A program made the position numbers and the translations under genes. Positions 30,229 through 48,476 of a stretch of 64,000 nt of DNA are shown here, piece by piece. A model generated the notes under the pieces. That model saw only the letters and a list, made by a program, of their open reading frames with translations. It was not told where the DNA came from and ran no database searches. Position 1 is the first letter of the stretch. Each line of letters starts with the position of its first letter. The DNA is from Vicinamibacterales bacterium. Lineage in GTDB: Bacteria; Acidobacteriota; Vicinamibacteria; Vicinamibacterales; UBA2999. The stretch is from NCBI GenBank assembly GCA_050183355.1, contig JBFXBH010000002.1, positions 23,288 to 87,287 of the forward strand. Reading direction: 5' to 3'.

Positions 30229-30257
30229 CGTAACGAGTTCGTCCGCTGGCGCACTCA
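30229..30257 (+). promoter_or_regulatory. ECF-type promoter-like motif cGTAAC-N17-CACTCA (copy 4)
   Basis: CGTAAC (30229-30234), 17 nt, CACTCA (30252-30257). It lies 46 nt upstream of the ATG at 30303 and has the same architecture as the copies at 39181, 46495(-) and 46518. Confidence 0.5.
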
Positions 30258-30302: not shown

Positions 30303-30725
30303 ATGGCATCGACACCAACGTTCGGACGAGCAGTGGCTGGTGGGGCCGTGGGCACGGTGGCGATGACCGCCATGATGTACGGCGTCGCGCCGATGATGGG
30401 TCTGAACATGGACATCGCGGCCATGCTCGGCAGCATGCTGGGCGGCAGTTGGCTCGCCGGCATGGCGATGCACGGCCTGCTCGGGGTTGTCGTGTTTCCG
30501 GCCGCGTTCACATTCGGGGTGCGCGGTCTTCTGCCTGGCTCCGAGCTGATGCGCGGGCTGGCCTGGGGCGTCGTCCTCTGGCTGATGGCGCAGGTCGTCG
30601 TGATGCCGATGATGGGCGGAGGGCTGTTCAGCAGCGCGATGGGCGGGATGATGGCCGTCATGGGCTCCCTTGCGGGGCACGTGCTGTACGGAGGCCTGTT
30701 CGGCATGGTTGCCGGCCGACGGTAA
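30303..30725 (+). CDS. Met/Gly-rich small integral membrane protein (hypothetical)
   Basis: AAGGAGA RBS before ATG 30303. 140 aa, about 4 predicted TM helices, 21 Met (15%) including PMMG, GMAMHG, VMPMMGGG and GGMMAVMG clusters. Confidence 0.65.
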   Translation: MASTPTFGRAVAGGAVGTVAMTAMMYGVAPMMGLNMDIAAMLGSMLGGSWLAGMAMHGLLGVVVFPAAFTFGVRGLLPGSELMRGLAWGVVLWLMAQVVVMPMMGGGLFSSAMGGMMAVMGSLAGHVLYGGLFGMVAGRR

Positions 30726-36543: not shown

Positions 36544-37709
36544 CCGTCCTCACCGGAGCAGAGCGCGGCGGCGTCTGTCGTGAGGTTGTAGTCCTCGCCC
36601 TTTGTTTCGCGCGGATCGCGCACCAGCGTGCCGCCCGTGCACGGGAACGGCCTGGCGTCGCCCTCCGCGACCGGTACGACCGGGTCGATCAATTCCACGT
36701 GCTCCCGGTACGGCGCCTGGGAGAAGACGTTGAATGTCTTGCGGCACACGGCAGTCCGCACGCCGCGCCGCAGCCGGTGCCCGTCGTCGTCGAGCACTTC
36801 CCGGAACGGGCCCTTGTACACGACCGCGTCCTTGTGGTCGAGACAGGGGCCGTCGCTGTGCTTCCACGCCACGATTGTCATGCTGCGGAACTCGATGCCC
36901 TCCACGGTACGCCATGCGTCGACCGCGCGCGACGCGATTGTCAGGGCGCGAAACCCCGCGCGCTCGAACGCCAGAAGGAACTCATCCTCGCGCAGGGCAC
37001 CGGAGACGCAGCCGGTCCAGAGCTCGGGATCCTGCCGCAGATGGTCGGGCACCGCTTCGTCCGCGACGATGTCCGAGATCACCACCCGCCCGCCGACGCG
37101 CACCACCCGGAACAACTCGTCGAACATGCGCGCCTTCTGGGACGCCTCGACCAGATTGAGCACGCAGTTGGAGATGACCACATCCACGGAGCCGTCGGCG
37201 ATGAGGGGCGTCTGGCGGCGCAGGCGCTCGGCTTCCGCCTCTGCCCGGGAGAAGGCTCCGACGGAGTCCGCCGGGGACGATGCGAGGTAGCGGTCGAAGG
37301 CATCGAGGTCGAGCGCCAGATCCTGGATCCGGGCCCTGGCGAACCGGACGTTCGAGAAGCCGACTGCCGCGGCGACGGTCGGTGCACTCCGGCGGGCGAG
37401 GGCAAGCATTTCCTCGTTCATGTCGACGCCGATGACCGCGCCCTCAGGTCCGACGACCTGACTGGCGATGAAACAGACCTTGCCTCCGCCTGAACCCAGA
37501 TCCAGGACCCTCTCGCCCGGCTGGAGATACCGGCTGGGGTCGCCGCAGCCGTAGTCCCGTTCCAGGACCTCCTCCGGAATCGCCCTCAGGAGGGCCGGAT
37601 CGTAGGACACGGGGCAGCACAGCGCGGCCTCCCTCGCCTGGGCGGCAGCGCCGTATCGTTCGCTCACCGCGTGTTCAACGCTCAAGTTGCTGAGGGCGCG
37701 CACTGACAT
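36534..37709 (-). CDS. arsM: arsenite S-adenosylmethionine methyltransferase ArsM-like
   Basis: Start at the internal Met MSVRAL. CCPVSYD...YGCGDP, SAM motif VLDLGSGGGK, TGCVSGAL, plus a Cys-rich C-terminal domain ending in GCC. Confidence 0.85.
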   Translation of the reverse strand: MSVRALSNLSVEHAVSERYGAAAQAREAALCCPVSYDPALLRAIPEEVLERDYGCGDPSRYLQPGERVLDLGSGGGKVCFIASQVVGPEGAVIGVDMNEEMLALARRSAPTVAAAVGFSNVRFARARIQDLALDLDAFDRYLASSPADSVGAFSRAEAEAERLRRQTPLIADGSVDVVISNCVLNLVEASQKARMFDELFRVVRVGGRVVISDIVADEAVPDHLRQDPELWTGCVSGALREDEFLLAFERAGFRALTIASRAVDAWRTVEGIEFRSMTIVAWKHSDGPCLDHKDAVVYKGPFREVLDDDGHRLRRGVRTAVCRKTFNVFSQAPYREHVELIDPVVPVAEGDARPFPCTGGTLVRDPRETKGEDYNLTTDAAALCSGEDGCC

Positions 37710-37854
37710 CCGTGTGACTCCTGGGTTGGGCCGGTAATGACCCAAGGGCGGCGGGCAGCCGGGATACCGCCACCTACCGGGTATGGGTGTGCTGGCAGCG
37801 CCGGACATTACAGACTCGCGTTCAGGACACGCCGGCGGGGCTTCTTCGCGAAGC

Positions 37855-37952: not shown

Positions 37953-38501
37953 ATGAACTACACCGTGCATTCCATCGAGTCCGCTCCGGCGGCTTCCAAA
38001 GATACATTGGCTGCCGTCGCAAGGGCCTACGGGTTTCTGCCGAATCTGATGGGCGTGATGGCCGAGGCGCCTGCCGCGCTCAAGGCCTACCCGACGCTGA
38101 TCGGGCTGTTCGACCAGACGTCGTTCACGCCGACGGAGCGGCAGGTCGTACTCCTGGCTACCAGCGTCGAGAACGGGTGCGACTACTGCGTGGCCGCGCA
38201 TACGGTGATCGCGGGCATGCAGGGCGTGGCCGGCGAGGTCGTGCAGGCGATTCGCGCGGGTCAGCCCCTTGCCGATACGAGGCTCGAGGCCCTGCGCCGC
38301 TTCACGATCGCGGTGGTCGGTTCACGGGGACGCGTCTCCGACGCGGACACCACGAGCTTCCTCGGCGCTGGATACACACTGGGGCAGGTGCTGGAGGTCG
38401 TGCTGGGCGTCGCCATCAAGACGCTGTCGAACTACGTGAACCACATTGCCGAGACGCCCATCGATGGCGCGTTTGCAGCGGCGGCGTCGCCGGCCGCGTA
38501 G
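37953..38501 (+). CDS. carboxymuconolactone decarboxylase (AhpD-like) family protein
   Basis: AAGGAGAA RBS. 182 aa with a CxxC in the AhpD-like context (ENGCDYCVAAH). Confidence 0.85.
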   Translation: MNYTVHSIESAPAASKDTLAAVARAYGFLPNLMGVMAEAPAALKAYPTLIGLFDQTSFTPTERQVVLLATSVENGCDYCVAAHTVIAGMQGVAGEVVQAIRAGQPLADTRLEALRRFTIAVVGSRGRVSDADTTSFLGAGYTLGQVLEVVLGVAIKTLSNYVNHIAETPIDGAFAAAASPAA

Positions 38502-39180: not shown

Positions 39181-39209
39181 TGTAACGATCGGGCCACCTC
39201 CGGCACTCA
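39181..39209 (+). promoter_or_regulatory. ECF-type promoter-like motif TGTAAC-N17-CACTCA (copy 3)
   Basis: TGTAAC (39181-39186), 17 nt, CACTCA (39204-39209). Upstream of a 32-codon ORF (39276) and the histidine kinase (39418). Confidence 0.55.
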
Positions 39210-39275: not shown

Positions 39276-39374
39276 ATGCAGCCGCTCGCCGACGTCGATC
39301 AGATCGACCACGCACCTGAGGAGTCGAAGGAGCCAGGCGAAGGCCGGGCTGAAGAGTGGGCTCCGGTCAGGTAA
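39276..39374 (+). CDS. candidate small acidic protein (32 aa), unverified
   Basis: ATG preceded by GGAGG (39264-39268, 7-nt spacing). MQPLADVDQIDHAPEESKEPGEGRAEEWAPVR*. It sits between the promoter-like motif and the kinase gene. It is below the track length cut-off and I have no homology evidence. Confidence 0.25.
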   Translation: MQPLADVDQIDHAPEESKEPGEGRAEEWAPVR

Positions 39375-39417: not shown

Positions 39418-40872
39418 ATGCAGCCGTGGGCATGGGGACTCCTGAACGTGCTCGTCTGGTCGGTCGGCCTGAAGGCTGTGTACGACCTGCGGCGTGAGCA
39501 CGCGGCTGGTTCGCGCGCCTGGACGCTTCTGACGTGGGCGCTCTGGTGCTGCCTGGCGATGGAGGCAGCCATGCTGCTGTCTCCGTCGATTCCGGGTCTG
39601 GCCCTTGTCTCGGTCGTGACAGGAATGCTCTCCGCGGGTCTCGCGGCCGGCGGCATGATGACCCTGGTGTCCGACGTGAGGACGGGAACGGATGCGGTCG
39701 GCGGGCCTCGTGTCGGGATTCTGGGCGGGCTACTCGCCGCGGCGCTGGCCGGATCCGTTGCGGTATCGGTTGTGGCGTCAGACACGGCCGTGCGCATATC
39801 CGGCGCCCTGCACTATCTGGAGGGCGCCCTCTGGCTGGCATCGTCGGCCATGCTGGTCACCGCGCTCCTGGCCAGCCACGAGACCACGGAGAGGCAACTG
39901 CTCAGGCCGCGGCAGTTCGCGGCGGCCTTTGCGATCGCGTTTCTCGGACCCGCCACGTCCATGCTGGCCTGGCTGGTCGGCACCACGGTGCCTCGGGAGG
40001 TGACGGCGCTGCTGAGCACGTTGTTCGTGCTGACGCTCGTATCGGCACTGTACGCCATGGTCATACGCGTGCGGAGCCGCGGCCTGGCGGCCGCGACGGC
40101 CCAGGTTCACGCCTACGAGCACCAGATCCTGATCGTCGAGAAACTCGCAGCGGTCAGCACCCTGGCGGCCGGTGCGGCGCATGACCTGAACAATGCACTC
40201 GCGGCCATCCACGGTTTCACGGAGTTGCTGCTCGACACGCCGGACCTGGCGCCGTCGGTCCGGCAGGATCTCTTGCAGGTTCGTACGGCGGCCCGGTCCG
40301 CCTCGGCTGTCGCGAAGGATCTGCTGGGCGTTGCCCGAGTGCACGCGGGCGCCGGTGGACCGAGGGGTGTGAAGGACGCAGTGCTGCAGCCGCTGGCGCT
40401 GCTGGAGCGGGAGTTCCAGCGTCGCCGAGTGCAGGTAGTCGCGGACGTGCCGGACGGGCTGCCGGACGTGTCAATGGAGCCGCAGGCACTGAGTGGGGTG
40501 TGCATGAACCTGTACCTCAACGCGCGGGACGCCATGGCCAGTCGCCAGAAGGGCCGGCTCACCCTCACGGTGCGCTCCCACGGCGACGGCGTTACGGTGA
40601 GCGTCGCCGATACGGGAACGGGCATCCCCGCCTCCTTTCGGAGCCGCATCTTTCAGCCGCTGGCGAGTACCAAGGGCGAGCACGGCACCGGCCTCGGATT
40701 GTCGGTATCGCGGCGGCTGGTTGTGGAGGCCGGCGGAGACATCACATTCGTCACCGATGAGGGCGTCGGGACGGAGTTCCGAATCCATCTGCCTGCCGCC
40801 AGCCGCGAGACCTGGCAGCGGAGCGATGGCGAGCCCTTGGACGTAGAGCCGCCGCCCGGACGGGCCGCGTAG
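39418..40872 (+). CDS. membrane-bound sensor histidine kinase (orphan, no adjacent response regulator)
   Basis: About 6 N-terminal TM helices. HisKA H-box (AAGAAHDLNNALAAIHGFTELL) and HATPase N/G boxes (NLYLNARDA, DTGTGIP, GTGLGLS). Confidence 0.9.
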   Translation: MQPWAWGLLNVLVWSVGLKAVYDLRREHAAGSRAWTLLTWALWCCLAMEAAMLLSPSIPGLALVSVVTGMLSAGLAAGGMMTLVSDVRTGTDAVGGPRVGILGGLLAAALAGSVAVSVVASDTAVRISGALHYLEGALWLASSAMLVTALLASHETTERQLLRPRQFAAAFAIAFLGPATSMLAWLVGTTVPREVTALLSTLFVLTLVSALYAMVIRVRSRGLAAATAQVHAYEHQILIVEKLAAVSTLAAGAAHDLNNALAAIHGFTELLLDTPDLAPSVRQDLLQVRTAARSASAVAKDLLGVARVHAGAGGPRGVKDAVLQPLALLEREFQRRRVQVVADVPDGLPDVSMEPQALSGVCMNLYLNARDAMASRQKGRLTLTVRSHGDGVTVSVADTGTGIPASFRSRIFQPLASTKGEHGTGLGLSVSRRLVVEAGGDITFVTDEGVGTEFRIHLPAASRETWQRSDGEPLDVEPPPGRAA

Positions 40873-41169: not shown

Positions 41170-42624
41170 TCACTTGAGCAGAACCGTGTCGGGAAACTGC
41201 GCGTACCAGGCGAACCAGAATGCTCGCTGCGCGGGAACCCGAGGCAGGGCAGGACCGCCCGACTCGGGCACGAGGCCGGACTCGGTGATGATCCACCGGC
41301 GGCCCGACTCGTCACGGAGCACGCGGTCGATGCGCTGCATCGGAGGTGCGATCGCGCCCTCGTACACGCGATTGGCGCCAGCGGAGGTCGTGACGACGAG
41401 GTACCGCCGGCTGCCACGCGAGAAGCTCAACAGCGGATTCCGCTTGAGGAGCCGCACGTCGATGGCGAGCGGCTCGATGGCCCCGGCGGCCGAGGGCAGT
41501 CGCAGCACGAGTACTTCGTCTTTCAGGTTCAGTCGGCGGTCCTCGGCCGGCACCGGAAACAGCAGATCGGGACTGGCGAAGTAGTCCCGGTACGCCGCGC
41601 CTTCGGCGTAGTCGCGGGAGAAGCCCGTGTTAATCGAGAGCACCGTCGTGTCGGGATGCATCTGCCGCCACTCTCGCCACGTCGTCGTGACCACCGCGCG
41701 CATCGGCAGTCGTATGCCGGACCGTGCGAGTGGACCGATCACCGGCGCGCCTTCGATGGCGGACCATAGGGTTCCGGTCTCCTCATCGAACATCAGTTTG
41801 TTCGAGCGGTAGAGCAGGCCGCTGGTGCCGAAATGAAAGTCCGCCGCGCCGACGTGGGTCTCGTACGGAATGACGGTGCCGCAGAGCGTGCAGTACACCA
41901 CCGCAAGGTCGATCTGGCCCAACCGGTCCAGGGCCAGCTCATGCCACGCGAGAATCCGCTTCGGATAGGCACGGGCCACCCCGCCGACTTCGATGCCGAA
42001 GACGATGTCGGAGTCTCGAAGGTAGTTCGCCTCCGGCGCAGTGACCACGGCCGGGTTGCGCAGCGGGGGGATGCCGTTGACCATCACGCCGCCCCAGTCC
42101 ACTTCGTCCAGGCGGATGCGCAGCGCGACGCCGTCGGGAAAGAATCTGGCCATTCGCGGGTCGATGCCGGCGTACAGTTGCCGCTTCAGCGCCACGTGGA
42201 CTGACAGCGATTCGGACGGCAGTGACCACGTCCACTTGCGCCAGCGGACCAGGTCGTCGCCGAGCTTCTGTTTCGTCTGGCGTTCGAGAAACTGAAGGAG
42301 CCGGCGCCGCTCGGGTGAGCCGGGATCGCCGATCTCGGGTAACCCGGCCCCGGCGGACGGCAGCCGAGACCCGGAGGGCATCCCATCGCCGTCGCCGACC
42401 GGTTGAGATCGACGTGGGGGCCGGAACATCCGAGCCATGTCGAGGAGGAGCGCCGCATACCCTGGGCGCCACTGCCGCGCGATCTCCCGCAGGGCCGCCT
42501 CGGCCACGGGCCGTTCCCGGGAGGCGGCTCGGAAGAAGGTGTCGACTGGAACCTCTGCCGTCGCGACCAATGGGACCGTGACGAGAGCCAGAGCGACGAC
42601 GACGCGCACGCCGAATCGGGCCAT
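41170..42624 (-). CDS. DUF3179 domain-containing protein (secreted)
   Basis: Signal peptide. Core motifs VFGIEVGGVARAYP, VVYCTLCGT, SGLLYRSNKLMFDEETGTLW typical of DUF3179. Confidence 0.85.
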   Translation of the reverse strand: MARFGVRVVVALALVTVPLVATAEVPVDTFFRAASRERPVAEAALREIARQWRPGYAALLLDMARMFRPPRRSQPVGDGDGMPSGSRLPSAGAGLPEIGDPGSPERRRLLQFLERQTKQKLGDDLVRWRKWTWSLPSESLSVHVALKRQLYAGIDPRMARFFPDGVALRIRLDEVDWGGVMVNGIPPLRNPAVVTAPEANYLRDSDIVFGIEVGGVARAYPKRILAWHELALDRLGQIDLAVVYCTLCGTVIPYETHVGAADFHFGTSGLLYRSNKLMFDEETGTLWSAIEGAPVIGPLARSGIRLPMRAVVTTTWREWRQMHPDTTVLSINTGFSRDYAEGAAYRDYFASPDLLFPVPAEDRRLNLKDEVLVLRLPSAAGAIEPLAIDVRLLKRNPLLSFSRGSRRYLVVTTSAGANRVYEGAIAPPMQRIDRVLRDESGRRWIITESGLVPESGGPALPRVPAQRAFWFAWYAQFPDTVLLK

Positions 42625-43074: not shown

Positions 43075-43162
43075 GGGTGCTCCAGAGGGATCGCTGCCAG
43101 GTGATCGTGTCAACCGATCGTGACGCATCCGCGCCGGGCACGGCGGCGCGAAGCGCGGGAAC

Positions 43163-43178
43163 TGTGAGATGCGTCACA
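43163..43178. promoter_or_regulatory. perfect CRP-type palindrome TGTGA-N6-TCACA (site 3)
   Basis: cTGTGAgatgcgTCACAa, between divergent ytxJ (start 43074) and the second CMD-family gene (start 43287 or 43251). Confidence 0.6.
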
Positions 43179-43286
43179 ACAATCATTGGCGCCCCGCGGC
43201 GATGATGCCGTCCGGATCGCGTCGGTCATGGGCAGTGACGCACTGCCGGGGTGACCGTGAACAGGAACCAGAACCGAGGGAATGAC

Positions 43287-43856
43287 ATGGCCGAAGCCGA
43301 ATTCACGATGTCCCTGCCTGCCCGAACCGAGAATGATGCCGACCCGGCCGTTGCGGACGTGCTGCGTGCCGCGAGGGCGGCCATGGGCATGATTCCGAAC
43401 ATGTACGCGAACATGGCGAATGTGCCCGGTCTGCTGCAGACCTACCGGACGGGCTACGACGCCTTCCGCTCGGATTCCGACCTGACGCCGGTCGAGCAGG
43501 AAGTCGTCTTTCTGACGATCAGCCGGCTGAACGGCTGTCGGTACTGTGTGGCGGCGCACAGCGCCGTGGCCGACATGTCCCAGGTACCAGAGGCGGTGAC
43601 CGCCGATCTTCGAGCCGGTACGCCCCTGGCCGATGCGAAGCTCCAGGCTCTGACGAGGTTCACGACAACGATGGTGGAGAGCCGTGGGCTGCCGACAAGG
43701 GCTGATGCGACCGCGTTTATCGATGCGGGCTATACCGAGCGCCACATGCTGCATGTGCTCCTCGCCATTGCTGTCAAGACCATCTCGAACTACAGCAATC
43801 ATCTCTTTCACACCCCACTGGACGCGGTGTTCGCGCACCGCGTCTGGGAGGACTAG
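43287..43856 (+). CDS. carboxymuconolactone decarboxylase (AhpD-like) family protein, paralog 2
   Basis: GAGGGA RBS before ATG 43287 (GTG 43251 is also possible). NGCRYCVAAH CxxC motif. Collinear with the 37953 paralog (…IKTLSNYVNH / …VKTISNYSNH). Confidence 0.8.
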   Translation: MAEAEFTMSLPARTENDADPAVADVLRAARAAMGMIPNMYANMANVPGLLQTYRTGYDAFRSDSDLTPVEQEVVFLTISRLNGCRYCVAAHSAVADMSQVPEAVTADLRAGTPLADAKLQALTRFTTTMVESRGLPTRADATAFIDAGYTERHMLHVLLAIAVKTISNYSNHLFHTPLDAVFAHRVWED

Positions 43857-44028: not shown

Positions 44029-44499
44029 TCAGGCCCTCGACGTGCCGCCGAGCATCCGCGAAAGGACATGGTCCACGGAAACTGCGCCGCCGCCGCGTAC
44101 GAGCAAGGTGACCAGGATGGAGGCCCACACGAGATGATCCGTCCACGCCGCCGGGTAGACAAACGTCTGAATCACGAGCAGCATGCCCAGGAACGGCAGC
44201 GTCGCCAGGCGGGTGCCGAGCCCGACGATGAGCAGCGTTGAGAAGACGAGTTCGTTGAAGGTGGCCATCTGCGCACTCAGCTCTGGCGGCATCAACGGCA
44301 CTTTGTACTCGTCCCGGAAGAGCATCAGGGTCAGTTCCCAGCTCTGGTACTTCAGCAGTCCCGCCTTGAGAAACACGGAGCCGATGGCGACCCGCATCAC
44401 CAGCTGAACGGCGGAGAAGGGGATGGCCTCGAGGCGGGCGAAGACGTTCGAGACAAGCCGTGCGGCAGGCGACGGCATGGCAATGGCGGCAGTGGTCAT
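44029..44499 (-). CDS. DoxX-family membrane protein (last gene of the bufferin-type operon)
   Basis: 156 aa, 4 TM helices, RVAIGSVFLKAGLLK DoxX pattern. ATGA overlap with the DUF2063 gene. Confidence 0.85.
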   Translation of the reverse strand: MTTAAIAMPSPAARLVSNVFARLEAIPFSAVQLVMRVAIGSVFLKAGLLKYQSWELTLMLFRDEYKVPLMPPELSAQMATFNELVFSTLLIVGLGTRLATLPFLGMLLVIQTFVYPAAWTDHLVWASILVTLLVRGGGAVSVDHVLSRMLGGTSRA

Positions 44500-45272
44500 C
44501 GGTGCGCTCCTGTGAGTGGCGATACGCCGGTCACCAGACCGTCGTGGAACAGGGCCGCCAGAGCAGGCCCGGGCTGAAAGTCGGGATGTACGACTGCCGC
44601 GGCGGCCGCCGCCTCCAGTGAAAGACCACGCTGGACGCCCTGACGGAACGCGAACGCACCGGGCGCCAGTCGCGTGAACCAGACGCGGCCGCGATCACCG
44701 CGCGCTTCGATCCAGACGGGTTCGTCTTCAAGCGGCGCGCCGCCCTCCTCCCGTCCGGAGAGGAACCGGGTCATGAGCGTGTCGATTGGCGACCGCGCGG
44801 TCCCGTACCACGTCGCGGGCTGCAGCGTGAGGCTGCAGCCAGGCAGCGCGTCGCCCAGCGCCTGCACCGCCTCCACCGGAAGAGCCGGTGCGGAGACGCC
44901 CACGGCCAGGCGTCCGAGATGCCAGTCGAACTCGGCGAAGACCCTGGCGGGGATGCCCGGCCGGGGTTCGGCCATCTCGAGCCATGCGGGAACGCCAGAT
45001 CCGTACTCCGCGATGCAGGGTGCCGCCGGCGGGTGAGCCCGGACGAACGCGCGTGCCGCGCGCTCGAGCGCGGGGGACCCCAGGAGCCAGCCCGTGGCGG
45101 GGAATCGGTTCATGACGGCCTCGACGAGGCTCGTCTCGAAGTGCCGGAGGTAGATGTCGAGCCTGCTGGCCGGATCCCGCTCGTCCGGCCGTTCGAGGAG
45201 CGTCAGGAGCGGCTCTCCGTTGCCGCTGACGACGGCGTCCCGGACGCGGCGCTGGAGGTCAGCGAGCCGCAC
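44496..45272 (-). CDS. bufC: DUF2063 domain-containing protein (BufC/MbnC-like RiPP partner protein)
   Basis: 258 aa. N-terminal LQRRVRDAV...RLDIYLRHFETSLVEAV typical of DUF2063. The GTG start overlaps the DUF692 gene by 14 nt. Confidence 0.8.
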   Translation of the reverse strand: MRLADLQRRVRDAVVSGNGEPLLTLLERPDERDPASRLDIYLRHFETSLVEAVMNRFPATGWLLGSPALERAARAFVRAHPPAAPCIAEYGSGVPAWLEMAEPRPGIPARVFAEFDWHLGRLAVGVSAPALPVEAVQALGDALPGCSLTLQPATWYGTARSPIDTLMTRFLSGREEGGAPLEDEPVWIEARGDRGRVWFTRLAPGAFAFRQGVQRGLSLEAAAAAAVVHPDFQPGPALAALFHDGLVTGVSPLTGAHR

Positions 45273-46131
45273 GGCCGCACCCTTCCGTCAACGCGCGCTG
45301 CGCCCTGTCCGCCTCACGCACCAGCGAGGCCAGCGGTGGCAGGTTCGTGTCACGCTCGATGAGCGTCGGCACGGGACCGAAGAGACGGAGCGCCGTCTCC
45401 AGCAGTCGCCATGGCCCGTCATCGACGTCCCGATCGTGCGTGTCGATGATGACGATGCCGCCGTCTGGTTCGGGCTCGCGCGTGAAGCCGCCGAGGTGCA
45501 GCTCGGCGACGGCGTGCGCCGGCAGGGCCGCCAGGTACGCCTCGGCGCGGTAGCCCATGTTGTGCGCGCTCAGGTAGACGTTGCTGACGTCGCAGAGGAG
45601 CCGGCAACCCGTGCGCGCGACCAGCGCGCTCAGAAACTCCGGCTCCGTCATGTCCGAGCCTGCGAATCCAAGGTAGTTCGCCGGGTTTTCCAGCAGAAAC
45701 GGCCGCCCGAGTGCGTCCTGCACCTCCTGCACGTGCGGCGCGATGACGGCCAGGGCTTCAGCCGTGTACGGCAGCGGCAGCAGGTCGTTGAGGTAGTCCG
45801 CCCCGTGCGTGGACCACGCGAGGTGCCCTGAGACGAACACCGGGTCCACCTGCTCAGCAAGCTCTTGCAGCCGGACCAGATGCCGGCGATCAAGACCTGA
45901 GGCGCTGCCGACCGACACGCCGACGGTGTGCAGCGCGATCGGATAGTCGCGGCGCAGGTCCAGCAACAGTTCGGTGGCGTGCGGGTTGGCGAGGACGTTC
46001 TCCGGGTGGATTTCGAACCACCCGACGGACGGGCGGGTGGCCACCGCCTCCTGCACATGCGGCAGGCGCAGCCCGATACCGGACCCGAGGGGAGGCGGGA
46101 CGGTGTCGGTCATGGCGGTAGCCACCGGCAT
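45259..46131 (-). CDS. bufB: DUF692 / MNIO (multinuclear non-haem iron oxidative) enzyme, BufB/MbnB-like
   Basis: AGGA RBS before Met 46131. GIGLRLPH...WFEIHPEN...HTVGVSVGS...SGHLAW...FLLENP...LHLGG TIM-barrel motifs of DUF692. Confidence 0.85.
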   Translation of the reverse strand: MPVATAMTDTVPPPLGSGIGLRLPHVQEAVATRPSVGWFEIHPENVLANPHATELLLDLRRDYPIALHTVGVSVGSASGLDRRHLVRLQELAEQVDPVFVSGHLAWSTHGADYLNDLLPLPYTAEALAVIAPHVQEVQDALGRPFLLENPANYLGFAGSDMTEPEFLSALVARTGCRLLCDVSNVYLSAHNMGYRAEAYLAALPAHAVAELHLGGFTREPEPDGGIVIIDTHDRDVDDGPWRLLETALRLFGPVPTLIERDTNLPPLASLVREADRAQRALTEGCGRAAR

Positions 46132-46139
46132 CGGCGTTC

Positions 46140-46403
46140 CTACTTGGCGGCCTTGGACGCGCCGACGAGGCGGTCGCAGTAGCCCTCGGGCACGAACACC
46201 CACGCCTTCTTGTCCCCGTCCTTCTTCGACATGCCGGCGCAGGAGTTGTTGCCCTGGGACGCACAGTCGTTCTTGCCGGCCTTGGCGATGCCGTAGCACT
46301 TCTCGGCTTTGAACGAGGGCATGGCGGCCGGCTGGGCGGAGAGGATGGCGGGGGCGGCGAGCGAGACAGCAAACGCGGAGGCGAGCAGAGCACGTGAGGT
46401 CAT
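46140..46403 (-). CDS. bufA: DUF2282 signal-peptide-bearing precursor (BufA-type bufferin precursor)
   Basis: 87 aa. Sec signal peptide, then EKCYGIAKAGKNDCASQGNNSCAG...WVFVPEGYCDRL with the four conserved Cys of DUF2282. Confidence 0.85.
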   Translation of the reverse strand: MTSRALLASAFAVSLAAPAILSAQPAAMPSFKAEKCYGIAKAGKNDCASQGNNSCAGMSKKDGDKKAWVFVPEGYCDRLVGASKAAK

Positions 46404-46466
46404 GATGAGAAGTCTCCCGGGGCCCGGGGTCCGGGTTCATCCCGGCCTGACCGGCCCACGCTGGAG

Positions 46467-46495
46467 TGAGTGCGGAAGGCGCGCCGGATGTTACA
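46467..46495 (-). promoter_or_regulatory. ECF-type promoter-like motif TGTAAC-N17-CACTCA (copy 2, drives bufA operon)
   Basis: Minus strand: TGTAAC (46495-46490), 17 nt, CACTCA (46472-46467). 64 nt upstream of the bufA ATG. Confidence 0.6.
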
Positions 46496-46517
46496 GGCGG
46501 CCCCGTGCCGGGGCTGC

Positions 46518-46546
46518 TGTAACGTCGCGCGGCCGGACAGCACTCA
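46518..46546 (+). promoter_or_regulatory. ECF-type promoter-like motif TGTAAC-N17-CACTCA (copy 1, autoregulatory)
   Basis: TGTAAC (46518-46523), 17 nt, CACTCA (46541-46546). 50 nt upstream of the sigma-factor GTG. Confidence 0.6.
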
Positions 46547-46595
46547 TGATCGCGAGACCGTCAGGACTTCTGCGGTGGCCGCGTAGAATAGCGCG

Positions 46596-47174
46596 GTGGC
46601 TGTTCGACCGGATCTGGAGAAGCTGAAGAACCGCGATGCGGACGCGTTGCGCGAGGTCGTGGACCAGCACGCGCGACGGCTGTACCGGACCGCGCGGGCG
46701 CTCGGGTGCAGCGCGGCGGTGGCCGAGGACGTGACGCAGGACGTGTTCGTGACGTTTCTGGAAGCGCTGGACCGCTTCGAAGGGCGATCGTCGCTGAGCA
46801 CGTGGCTGATCGGCATCCTGCGGCACAAGGTGTTCGAGCGGCGCCGTGCGGCTCTGCGCGATGATCGGCACGACCCGATTGACGAGGTGTTCGAAGCGCA
46901 GTTCGATCGGGCGGGCCACTGGACGCCCGAGGCGTCACCAGCCGATCGGCAGTTGGAGGCTCTGCAGTCCGCTGAAGCCGTGACGGCCTGCATGGCGGCG
47001 TTGCCGGATCGACTGCGCGAGGTGTTTCACCTGAGGCAGGTGGAAGATCTCTCTGCCGAAGAGGTCGGCCGCATGGTGGGATGCACGCCGGGACATGTGG
47101 GCGTGCTCCTGCATCGGGCCCGGACGCGGCTGCGGACGTGCCTGAAGGAGAAGGGATGGGGGCCAAGGCTATGA
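46596..47174 (+). CDS. ECF-family RNA polymerase sigma-70 factor
   Basis: 192 aa. Region 2 (AEDVTQDVFVTFLEALDRFEGRSSLSTWLIGILRHKV) and region 4 (LPDRLREVFHLRQVEDLSAEEVGRMVGCTPGHVGVLLHRAR). GTG start. Confidence 0.9.
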   Translation: MAVRPDLEKLKNRDADALREVVDQHARRLYRTARALGCSAAVAEDVTQDVFVTFLEALDRFEGRSSLSTWLIGILRHKVFERRRAALRDDRHDPIDEVFEAQFDRAGHWTPEASPADRQLEALQSAEAVTACMAALPDRLREVFHLRQVEDLSAEEVGRMVGCTPGHVGVLLHRARTRLRTCLKEKGWGPRL

Positions 47175-47404
47175 TGACCTGCAAGGACGTGTCGACGCTC
47201 GTCTCGCTGGGCGATGTCGGTTCGTGGTCCGTGTCCAGGCGTCTTGCGATCCGGCTCCACCTCCTCATGTGCCGGCACTGCCGGGCGTTCGCCCGGCAGG
47301 TCGAGATGTTGACGCACGCGGCGCGCGGCACGGGCGCACGGGTGGGGCAGGAGCCTCCGCCGACGTTTGAGACGGCGATCGTGGATCGGTTGAGGAAAGG
47401 TTGA
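47171..47404 (+). CDS. short soluble zinc-finger (ZAS, HxxxCxxC) anti-sigma factor
   Basis: ATGA overlap with the sigma gene. 77 aa with C4 ... H30-x3-C34-x2-C37 (HLLMCRHC). No hydrophobic segment. Confidence 0.8.
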   Translation: MMTCKDVSTLVSLGDVGSWSVSRRLAIRLHLLMCRHCRAFARQVEMLTHAARGTGARVGQEPPPTFETAIVDRLRKG

Positions 47405-47408
47405 CGAC

Positions 47409-48476
47409 ATGAAGATCCTTCGCTTGCGTGTACGGGCGGCAGTGGCTCTGGCGATTGTGTGTGTCGCAGCGGGCGCGGGGGCGGCGCAGACAGCCGCACC
47501 GTTGCCGGATGTGCGGTCGCTCGGTCCGCAGGTGGGACAGACGGTTCCCTCGATCTCCCTGGCGGATCAGAAGGGCGTGGTGCGCACGCTGCCGTCGCTC
47601 ATGGGACCGAAGGGCCTGATGTTGGTGTTCTCGCGGTCCGCGGACTGGTGCCCCTATTGCAAGACCCAGATGGCGGAACTGCAGACCAAAGCGGAGGACC
47701 TCCGCCGCAACGGGTGGGGGCTGGCAGTCGTGACCTACGACGCGGTCCCCGTCCTGGCGGACTTCGCAGCGAGGAGAGGCATTACCTACCCGCTCCTCTC
47801 CGACCCCGGATCGGAGACCATCAAGCGTTTCGGCATCCTGAACACGACGGTCCCTGCCGAGAACAAGGCGATGTTCGGGATCCCGTTCCCGGGTACGTTC
47901 CTGCTGGATGCGAAAGGCGTTGTCACGAACCGGTTCTTCGAGCCCGCGTATCAGGAGCGGGTCACGGTGGGGAGTGTTCTCGCGCGCCTGGGTAATCGCC
48001 TTGACGTTCCCGTGACGAAGGTCTCCTCGCCGCAGATGAACGTCACGGCGTACGCCACCGACGGTGTCGTGGCGCCGGGGACGAACTTCTCGGTCGTCCT
48101 GGACGTGGAGCCCGGTCCGAAGATGCACGTGTACGCGCCGGGCGTGACGGGCTACAAGCCGATCGCGCTGACCATGCAGCCGACTCCGGGCGTTCAGGTG
48201 AAGGCCGCGCAGTATCCGAAGTCCGAGGAGTACTACTTCGCGCCGCTCAAGGAACGCGTGCAGGTCTACCAGCGGCCGTTCCGCGTGGTGCAGGACCTGG
48301 CGGTCGACGCCTCGACGGCCGGTCAGGCCGCGCTCAAGGGCGTGACCACGCTGATACTGAAGGGCACGCTCGCCTACCAGGCGTGTGACGACCGTGTCTG
48401 CTACACGCCGCAGACCGTTCCCTTGACGTGGACGGTCGAACTGCGCGCACTCGACCGGGATCGGCCGAGGCCCTGA
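47409..48476 (+). CDS. secreted peroxiredoxin (AhpC/TSA/BCP-like) fused to a DsbD-alpha-like domain
   Basis: Signal peptide. Redoxin domain with WCPYC. The C-terminal domain ends in YQACDDRVCYTPQ, resembling the DsbD N-terminal domain YQGCADAGFCYPP. Starts 4 nt after the anti-sigma stop. Confidence 0.8.
   Translation: MKILRLRVRAAVALAIVCVAAGAGAAQTAAPLPDVRSLGPQVGQTVPSISLADQKGVVRTLPSLMGPKGLMLVFSRSADWCPYCKTQMAELQTKAEDLRRNGWGLAVVTYDAVPVLADFAARRGITYPLLSDPGSETIKRFGILNTTVPAENKAMFGIPFPGTFLLDAKGVVTNRFFEPAYQERVTVGSVLARLGNRLDVPVTKVSSPQMNVTAYATDGVVAPGTNFSVVLDVEPGPKMHVYAPGVTGYKPIALTMQPTPGVQVKAAQYPKSEEYYFAPLKERVQVYQRPFRVVQDLAVDASTAGQAALKGVTTLILKGTLAYQACDDRVCYTPQTVPLTWTVELRALDRDRPRP

Follow-up and report, generated by a model that had tools for sequence, protein, structure and literature searches.

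Candidate promoters for an autoregulated ECF sigma factor and a divergent bufferin operon in a Vicinamibacterales genome

Background

Bufferins, copper-binding peptides that were recognised recently, form a very large family, and to our knowledge only a few Proteobacteria have provided information on how they are regulated. The Acidobacteriota are abundant in soil and almost unstudied genetically. A 64,000-nucleotide (nt) stretch of a contig from a member of this phylum, a Vicinamibacterales bacterium (JBFXBH010000002.1; hereafter the window, numbered from its first letter), carries a bufferin-type operon that diverges from the gene for a sigma factor of the extracytoplasmic function (ECF) class. 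Two back-to-back copies of a motif, TGTAAC-N17-CACTCA, lie between the operon and the sigma gene, and an earlier note had taken them as promoters of an autoregulated ECF regulon. Are these motifs promoters, which regulator reads them, and how far does the set of target genes extend? We put at roughly 0.8 the probability that the motifs are the -35 (cTGTAAy) and -10 (CACTCAc) elements of promoters used by the ECF sigma factor encoded at 46596-47174, an assignment made from sequence comparison.

The sigma factor locus

The genes on the two sides of the motif pair are as follows.

46596-47174, + strand: ECF (group IV) sigma factor, 192 amino acids (aa); Pfam Sigma70_r2 and Sigma70_r4_2
47171-47404, + strand: 77-aa anti-sigma factor of the zinc-binding anti-sigma (ZAS) type; NCBIfam NF052368 'antisigmaE' (55.9 bits, cut-off 50)
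47409-48476, + strand: protein with AhpC/TSA-Redoxin and DsbD_N domains (Pfam), 5 nt past the anti-sigma gene
44029-46403, - strand: bufferin-type gene cluster (Pfam), made up of the next four genes
46140-46403, - strand: BufA1/DUF2282 precursor (Pfam)
45259-46131, - strand: MNIO maturase BufB; NCBIfam MNIO_BufB (326.6 bits, cut-off 310)
44496-45272, - strand: DUF2063 protein (Pfam)
44029-44499, - strand: DoxX protein (Pfam)

The sigma factor contains regions 2 and 4 only, according to Pfam, and a metagenome-assembled genome from the Vicinamibacterales (Acidobacteriota) encodes a protein 100% identical to it. Searches with tblastn using five ECF queries found it to be the only ECF-like gene in the window. 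Against NCBIfam its best models were PRK11922 and TIGR02943, and all sigma models scored far under their cut-offs. The ATG of the anti-sigma gene overlaps the sigma stop codon (ATGA), and its product has the pattern C4-x25-H30-x3-C34-x2-C37, the ZAS signature (published as C/H-x23-26-H-x3-C-x2-C), with the four residues invariant in 11 orthologues. This 77-aa protein has no Pfam match, and no homologue of NrsF, the anti-sigma factor of the SigF/ECF16 systems discussed below, was found in the window by tblastn. By these features the anti-sigma factor is a short cytoplasmic ZAS protein rather than one of the NrsF type, and this predicted partner sets the sigma factor apart from the SigF/ECF16 type. 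The AhpC/TSA-DsbD_N gene probably shares a transcript with the sigma and anti-sigma genes; the same order of three genes is present in L161, one of the orthologous loci compared below. On the opposite strand, a DUF2282 precursor, an MNIO maturase, a DUF2063 partner and DoxX are encoded in one operon, the composition that defines a Buf1 cluster.

Four motif copies in the window

Both strands of the window were searched for GTAAC-N17-CACTCA, and four exact matches were found.

46518-46523 (TGTAAC), 17 nt, 46541-46546 (CACTCA), + strand: candidate ECF promoter of the sigma/anti-sigma/AhpC-DsbD_N operon
46495-46490 (TGTAAC), 17 nt, 46472-46467 (CACTCA), - strand: candidate ECF promoter of the bufferin operon bufA-bufB-bufC-doxX
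30230-30257 (GTAAC-N17-CACTCA), + strand: candidate ECF promoter of a DUF6789 membrane-protein gene
39182-39209 (GTAAC-N17-CACTCA), + strand: candidate ECF promoter of a membrane histidine kinase gene

The two outlying sites precede the following genes.

30303-30725, + strand: DUF6789 membrane protein (Pfam PF20587)
39418-40872, + strand: membrane histidine kinase (Pfam HisKA and HATPase_c)

All four sites are intergenic and each faces the next gene. The + strand site of the pair ends 49 nt upstream of the sigma GTG at 46596, and the - strand site 63 nt upstream of the bufA (DUF2282) ATG at 46403. At the outlying sites the distance to the start of the downstream gene is 45 nt for the DUF6789 gene and 208 nt for the histidine kinase gene. 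The two spacers of the back-to-back pair, gtcgcgcggccggacag and atccggcgcgccttccg, have no mutual similarity, so the pair is not a duplication.

Dinucleotide shuffles of the window gave a mean of 0.02 matches, and none of 100 shuffles reached four. When two mismatches were allowed, 8 matches were observed against 6.1 expected; the relaxed search adds only background, and the signal in the window is thus a sharp one. The coordinates given in the earlier note are all exact, its impression of unrelated spacers was borne out by checking the sequence, and its estimate by eye of about 70% G+C compares with a computed 69.8%. It had also expected far fewer than one chance match and had described four matches, all intergenic and all pointing into a downstream gene; the shuffles agree with the first statement, and the second holds for four out of four. 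A scan of 46300-46700 with the sigma-70 consensus found no match competing for the motif positions.

Conservation of the motif at orthologous loci

The earlier note had suggested a search of orthologous loci for the motif. Our comparative set comprises 11 non-redundant loci (L161-L170 and L173, 203,757 nt in total) encoding sigma factors 54-73% identical to that of the window. These loci were picked solely by the encoded sigma homologue, and the motif played no part in the choice. The sigma gene is followed by a gene for a ZAS protein of 76-82 aa in all ten loci where such a gene was called (none was called in L165).

The exact window pattern was present among L161-L163 in L163 only, apart from one chance match in control locus L076. 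After inspection of the intergenic regions of the orthologous loci, the motif was loosened to allow any base at the fifth position of both the -35 and the -10 element. In this form, GTAAN-N16-18-CACTNA, it has 24 matches in the 11 loci against 0.3 expected (a maximum of 2 in 100 shuffles), and the spacer is 17 nt in every one of the 24, though 16 to 18 nt were permitted, while spacer sequences are divergent throughout. At the fifth -35 position C, T and G all occur, and at the fifth -10 position T or A sometimes replaces C, giving the consensus c-T-G-T-A-A-(T/G/C)-(G/A)-(T/A)-N14-C-A-C-T-C-A-c. Across the 28 sites of the window and the loci together, the -10 element is CACTNA in 28 and CACTCA in 24, with neither CGAA nor CGTA in any. 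As a negative control we used 160 loci (L001-L160, 1.07 Mb) near distant ECF genes, namely relatives of the sigma factor from two collection scans, one of genome contigs and one of metagenome contigs, that, among the matches listed, are too distant to serve as orthologues (25-39% identity). These returned 9 matches with mixed spacing in mostly AT-rich sequence.

The sigma gene, or the gene that opens its operon, has a site 23-87 nt upstream in the window and in 9 of the 11 loci (L161-L167, L169 and L170). The bufA gene is preceded by a homologous site at 56-63 nt in L161, L167, L170 and L173. In the first three of these it is the back-to-back partner of the sigma-facing site, and in L173 the bufA site stands without a partner. 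Elsewhere the partner faces other genes: DUF6789 genes in L165, L168 and L169, and in L162-L164 an operon for a VTT-domain protein, an FAD disulfide oxidoreductase and a Pyr_redox_2 protein together with an ABC transporter. A DUF6789 gene is found inside the buf operon in L167. In L161, a gene for a 480-aa HisKA/HATPase_c kinase, similar to that of the window, follows doxX and brxC on the buf strand. The two outlying window targets are from gene families found repeatedly with the motif. Thioredoxin/redoxin genes are also among the recurrent motif-linked genes.

Every intergenic site in the set faces the gene beside it. Within a pair, anything from 12 to 28 nt separates the two -35 elements, yet the -35 and -10 of each site are always the same distance apart, so the pair consists of two independent directional elements and is not a single palindrome. 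The search thus returned the motif with a fixed 17-nt spacing ahead of sigma genes or operons, bufA and DUF6789 genes, and phylogenetic footprinting supports the autoregulated ECF regulon, with its promoters, that the earlier note had proposed. Its motif needs refinement, as the fifth -35 base is degenerate (C, T or G) and there is probably one further, weaker site in the window. On this comparison, the existence of a real autoregulated ECF regulon in the Vicinamibacterales (Acidobacteriota) appears well supported.

A fifth candidate site

A position matrix was built from the 24 non-window sites only, and all 128,000 positions of the window were scanned with it. The site at 39182 scored best at 27.7 bits, followed among the four exact matches by the bufA site (26.9 bits), the sigma site (22.0 bits) and the site at 30230 (17.0 bits); all four are within the top five. 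The remaining member of the top five, third best in the window, is a further candidate promoter that lies ahead of a string of genes on the - strand.

37784-37811, - strand: TGTAAT-N17-CACCCA, fifth, weaker candidate promoter, 25.0 bits
30778-37709, - strand: string of seven genes resembling the 'arsenosugar biosynthesis' gene set, behind the fifth site

Apart from these five sites, no position of the window reaches 10 bits. The fifth site is 74 nt upstream of the ATG at 37709, the start of the first gene of the string. The proteins encoded in the string are an ArsM-like methyltransferase, an ArsS radical SAM enzyme (TIGR04167; 427 bits, cut-off 300), a VTT/DedA protein, an FAD oxidoreductase (PRK06370; 657 bits, cut-off 620), a TIGR03169 oxidoreductase and two glycosyltransferases from TIGR04282 and TIGR04283, both 'arsenosugar' families. 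In L162-L164, exact copies of the motif are followed immediately by a string encoding VTT, Pyr_redox (506 aa) and Pyr_redox_2 (375-383 aa) proteins, which match in Pfam family and are close in size, and this makes the fifth site credible. We regard it as probably a fifth, weaker promoter of the predicted regulon.

Which regulator reads the sites

The closest parallel to the motif is the promoter of the ECF16 (SigF/RpoE7) sigma factors, with the consensus (T/C)GTAAC-N17-CGAA. The ECF16/NrsF (DUF1109) systems compared here are Caulobacter SigF-NrsF, S. meliloti RpoE7-EcfR7, Bradyrhizobium EcfF and Brucella BcrS. For Caulobacter SigF the site is GTAACC-N16-CGAA (PMC3511200), and the literature agrees with what the earlier note had said of this system, both a GTAAC -35 core with a different -10 (PMC3511200) and SigF control of a DUF2282-DUF692-DUF2063-DoxX operon. 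In S. meliloti, TGTAAC...CGAA promoters face both ways between rpoE7-ecfR7 and a DUF692/DUF2063 operon. More broadly, in Caulobacter, S. meliloti and Neisseria a DUF2282/DUF692/DUF2063/DoxX cluster is under the control of an ECF sigma factor encoded beside it, and in H. influenzae RpoE2 affects expression of a cluster of this type.

The window locus shares with ECF16 systems the -35 core (T/C)GTAAC, the 17-nt spacing between -35 and -10, the divergent layout of RpoE7, in which the sigma/anti-sigma genes and the DUF2282-DUF692-DUF2063 operon each have their own promoter, the predicted autoregulation, and the likely tie to copper or oxidant stress and bufferins. It differs in its -10 element, CACTCA(c) instead of CGAA, in its fifth -35 base, which may be C, T or G, in its anti-sigma factor, a 77-aa soluble ZAS protein where ECF16 systems have the six-helix membrane protein NrsF, and in phylum, Acidobacteriota as against Proteobacteria. 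The sigma factor itself is 24-25% identical to two NrsF-linked ECF sigma factors of related genomes.

These likenesses raise the alternative that the sites are indeed promoters, but are read by another sigma factor, that of an ECF16-type SigF/NrsF system located beyond the window. In its favour, the sites have the same -35 core and spacer length as the ECF16 consensus, and ECF-NrsF pairs are present in related genomes, at 18519-19846 in L169 and 12530-13742 in L173. However, the -10 element differs from CGAA/CGTA in all 28 sites, and the motif accompanies the ZAS-linked sigma gene in every locus that was retrieved through a ZAS-linked sigma. No NrsF or second ECF gene was found in the window by tblastn and none was called beside the sites in L162 and L164-L168, while L161 and L163 have one other ECF gene each, not linked to NrsF. 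The pattern GTAAC-N16-18-CGAA has just three matches in the window and orthologous loci combined, scattered and not promoter-like. In L173, the NrsF-linked ECF gene has its own TGTAAC-N17-CGTA and the ZAS-linked locus some 4 kb away has TGTAAT-N17-CACTTA. This case, a single example, suggests that the ZAS-linked and NrsF-linked systems are kept apart by the -10 element. An ECF16-like promoter was sought upstream of the second ECF genes in L169, L170 and L173, and was present in L173 only. We consider it unlikely that an ECF16-type sigma factor is the reader of these sites.

Several observations weigh against the assignment of the motifs to the adjacent sigma factor. The -35 and spacer equal the ECF16 consensus, and a second sigma factor elsewhere could in principle read the sites. 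Most ECF -10 elements described so far have a CG(T/A) core, which is absent from CACTCA, and we found no paper linking CACTCA to an ECF sigma factor, in a literature search that was incomplete. The histidine kinase leader, at 208 nt, is unusually long. The sigma genes of L168 and L173 have no upstream copy of the motif. The motif is also absent from L175, a Gemmatimonadetes contig whose sigma factor is 58% identical and has no ZAS partner, and since partner and motif are both missing there, the boundary of the family falls within the list of BLAST hits. The organism is known solely as a metagenome-assembled genome.

A second alternative is that the blocks are operator half-sites, bound either by the Crp/Fnr-family protein encoded next to one of the sites (site A) or by the DUF2063 protein ('putative DNA-binding'). 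The end of a Crp-family gene is 43 nt ahead of site A, Crp-family genes recur in L161 and L170, and paired sites jointly form a long inverted repeat. But the blocks lack symmetry with one another, sites often occur singly and then always face a downstream gene, and the distance between paired sites ranges over 12-28 nt whereas that from -35 to -10 is invariant. The distance to start codons, mostly 11-87 nt, is as for promoters, and the same layout with TGTAAC-N17-CGAA makes up experimentally proven RpoE7- and SigF-dependent promoters in S. meliloti and Caulobacter. The varying distance between paired sites rules out a palindromic operator, and operator sites of any such kind seem very improbable to us. 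Chance or local duplication, which might be invoked because short motifs may recur in 64 kb and two of the copies share one intergenic region, is refuted by the shuffles, by the unrelated spacers and by the conservation of the motif without its spacer in 11 independent loci.

Other known systems and a proposed mechanism

The Neisseria sigma-E/MseR and H. influenzae RpoE2/HrsE pairs, called ECF group 13 and since merged into ECF293, resemble the locus in other respects. They have a short (67-aa) cytoplasmic ZAS anti-sigma factor co-transcribed with the sigma gene, a DoxX/DUF2282/DUF692/DUF2063 cluster that is controlled or affected, and a small oxidative-stress regulon. Their -35 element starts with GTAAG, a variant present in L162-L165, L167, L168 and L170. 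Unlike the -10 here, CACTCA, theirs belongs to a published promoter of the form GTMAGBWTT, 12-13 nt, CGTCTAAH. The Neisseria sigma gene lies within its buf-like operon, whereas the one here is divergent, and msrAB, the main target in Neisseria and Haemophilus, is not seen among the targets here. Actinobacterial SigD (Corynebacterium and Mycobacterium) shares the -35 only, GTAAC(A/G), and differs in its -10 element, GAT, and in its regulon of cell-envelope genes.

The motif with its statistics, its conservation and orientation at the orthologous loci, the identities of the genes and the invariant ZAS residues are direct observations. We infer that the adjacent sigma factor is the reader of the sites, as we do the position of the transcription start, the inducing signal and co-transcription within the operons. 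In the unstressed cell, the sigma factor would be held by the co-translated 77-aa cytoplasmic ZAS anti-sigma factor with its predicted zinc-binding C-x25-H-x3-C-x2-C motif. Thiol-reactive stress would attack the anti-sigma cysteines and free the sigma factor, the likely triggers being oxidants (HOCl) or thiophilic metals and metalloids such as copper. The free sigma factor with RNA polymerase would then start transcription a few bases past CACTCA at each site. Rightward, this would produce the sigma factor, the anti-sigma factor and the periplasmic AhpC/TSA-DsbD_N redoxin, a combination of positive and negative feedback; leftward, it would produce the BufA1 precursor, the MNIO maturase, the DUF2063 partner and DoxX. 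The outlying targets would be the DUF6789 membrane protein, the histidine kinase and probably the operon of ArsM/ArsS, VTT and disulfide oxidoreductase genes. This list fits a response to copper, oxidant or soft-metal stress, given the presence of bufferin, DoxX, redoxin-DsbD_N, BrxC in relatives, disulfide reductases and ArsM/ArsS.

Both the control of bufferin operons by ECF sigma factors and the divergent arrangement of two promoters have been published before, for other bacteria. The locus reveals no new mechanism, and its regulon is of a fairly ordinary bacterial kind. A modestly interesting feature is an ECF16-like -35 and spacer combined with another -10 and another type of anti-sigma factor. 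The locus supplies a testable promoter model, cTGTAAy-N17-CACTCAc, and a predicted regulon for a different sigma/anti-sigma pair in Acidobacteriota, and the motif is directly usable for annotating regulons in Vicinamibacterales genomes. A wider proposal, which we put forward tentatively and regard as rather doubtful, is that in Vicinamibacterales two unrelated ECF systems, one ZAS-linked and one NrsF-linked, share TGTAAC plus 17 nt and are separated by the -10 element alone, CACTCA in the one and CGTA or CGAA in the other. The ZAS-linked system would then be a cytoplasmic thiol switch uniting bufferin, periplasmic redoxins, disulfide reductases and the ArsM/ArsS operon in a single regulon for soft metal(loid) and thiol stress. 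If so, the shared -35 would permit graded cross-talk or competition between the sigma factors. Two ECF sigma factors sharing a -35 and insulated by the -10 alone would be a natural case relevant to the design of orthogonal sigma/promoter pairs.

Leader elements and other observations

Two further elements lie between the promoter candidates and the genes that they face.

46584-46589, + strand: TAGAAT hexamer, 6 nt ahead of the sigma GTG; possible housekeeping -10
46430-46446, - strand: GCCGGGATGAnCCCGG, hairpin-like element in the bufA 5' leader

A TAnnnT hexamer at -12 or -11 from the sigma start codon is present in 9 of 12 loci (the window, L161-L165, L167, L169 and L173), in the forms TAGAAT, TACAAT, TAAGAT and TATGAT, with unrelated flanks in sequence of about 70% G+C. 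Its distance to the GTG is 6 nt, but 5 nt in L173, and L165 has copies at 5 nt and 0 nt. As a candidate housekeeping -10, the hexamer would provide the sigma gene with a basal, leaderless transcript in addition to the ECF-dependent one. In the window, the in-frame TAG at 46584 means that no N-terminally extended sigma isoform can arise from the upstream promoter. Streptomyces SigR-RsrA also has a soluble ZAS anti-sigma factor, one that senses thiol oxidation, and sigR is autoregulated with a second, constitutive promoter. The TAGAAT hexamer may be the counterpart of that second promoter, as far as its sequence suggests. SigR-RsrA differs from the system here in its promoter consensus, in the greater length of RsrA and in having no link to bufferins.

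In the bufA leader, the block CGGGAT(G/A)nnnCCGG is conserved in five loci (the window, L161, L167, L170 and L173), and ahead of it a GTGG, likewise conserved, stands 7 nt past the -10 element. The consensus of the block can form a hairpin of 5-6 base pairs with the loop AUGAn and one compensatory pair. A search of the whole window against Rfam gave nothing at the gathering threshold. The block could be a leader hairpin or the site of a second regulator.

Intragenic copies of the full motif are found at the 3' end of the sigma gene in L167 (10467-10494, + strand) and L168 (10488-10515, + strand), and no such copy is present in the window. Both copies (GTAAT or GTAAG, N17, CACTCA) end 75 nt before the start codon of the anti-sigma gene. 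The CACTCA is formed by the Thr-His codons of region 4.2, and the -35 part codes for different residues at each locus. These copies may be internal promoters for extra anti-sigma factor.

Several other features accompany the predicted regulon units. The 208-nt leader upstream of the histidine kinase gene contains a 32-codon open reading frame (39276-39374, + strand) with no family match. Amid the units are two carboxymuconolactone decarboxylase (CMD; AhpD-like) genes (37953-38501 and 43251-43856, both + strand). Neither has a copy of the motif; the region between brxC and the second of them (43129-43250) holds just GGAAC-N17-CAATCA, with two mismatches, which we did not count as a site. CMD genes recur in L161 and L170, and in L161 one is directly 3' of the second ECF gene. 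The ECF-NrsF pair of L169 (18519-19846) is on the + strand, and that of L173 (12530-13742, - strand) adjoins a DUF3179 gene. In the window, a DUF3179 gene (41170-42624, - strand) lies downstream of the BrxC/YtxJ gene.

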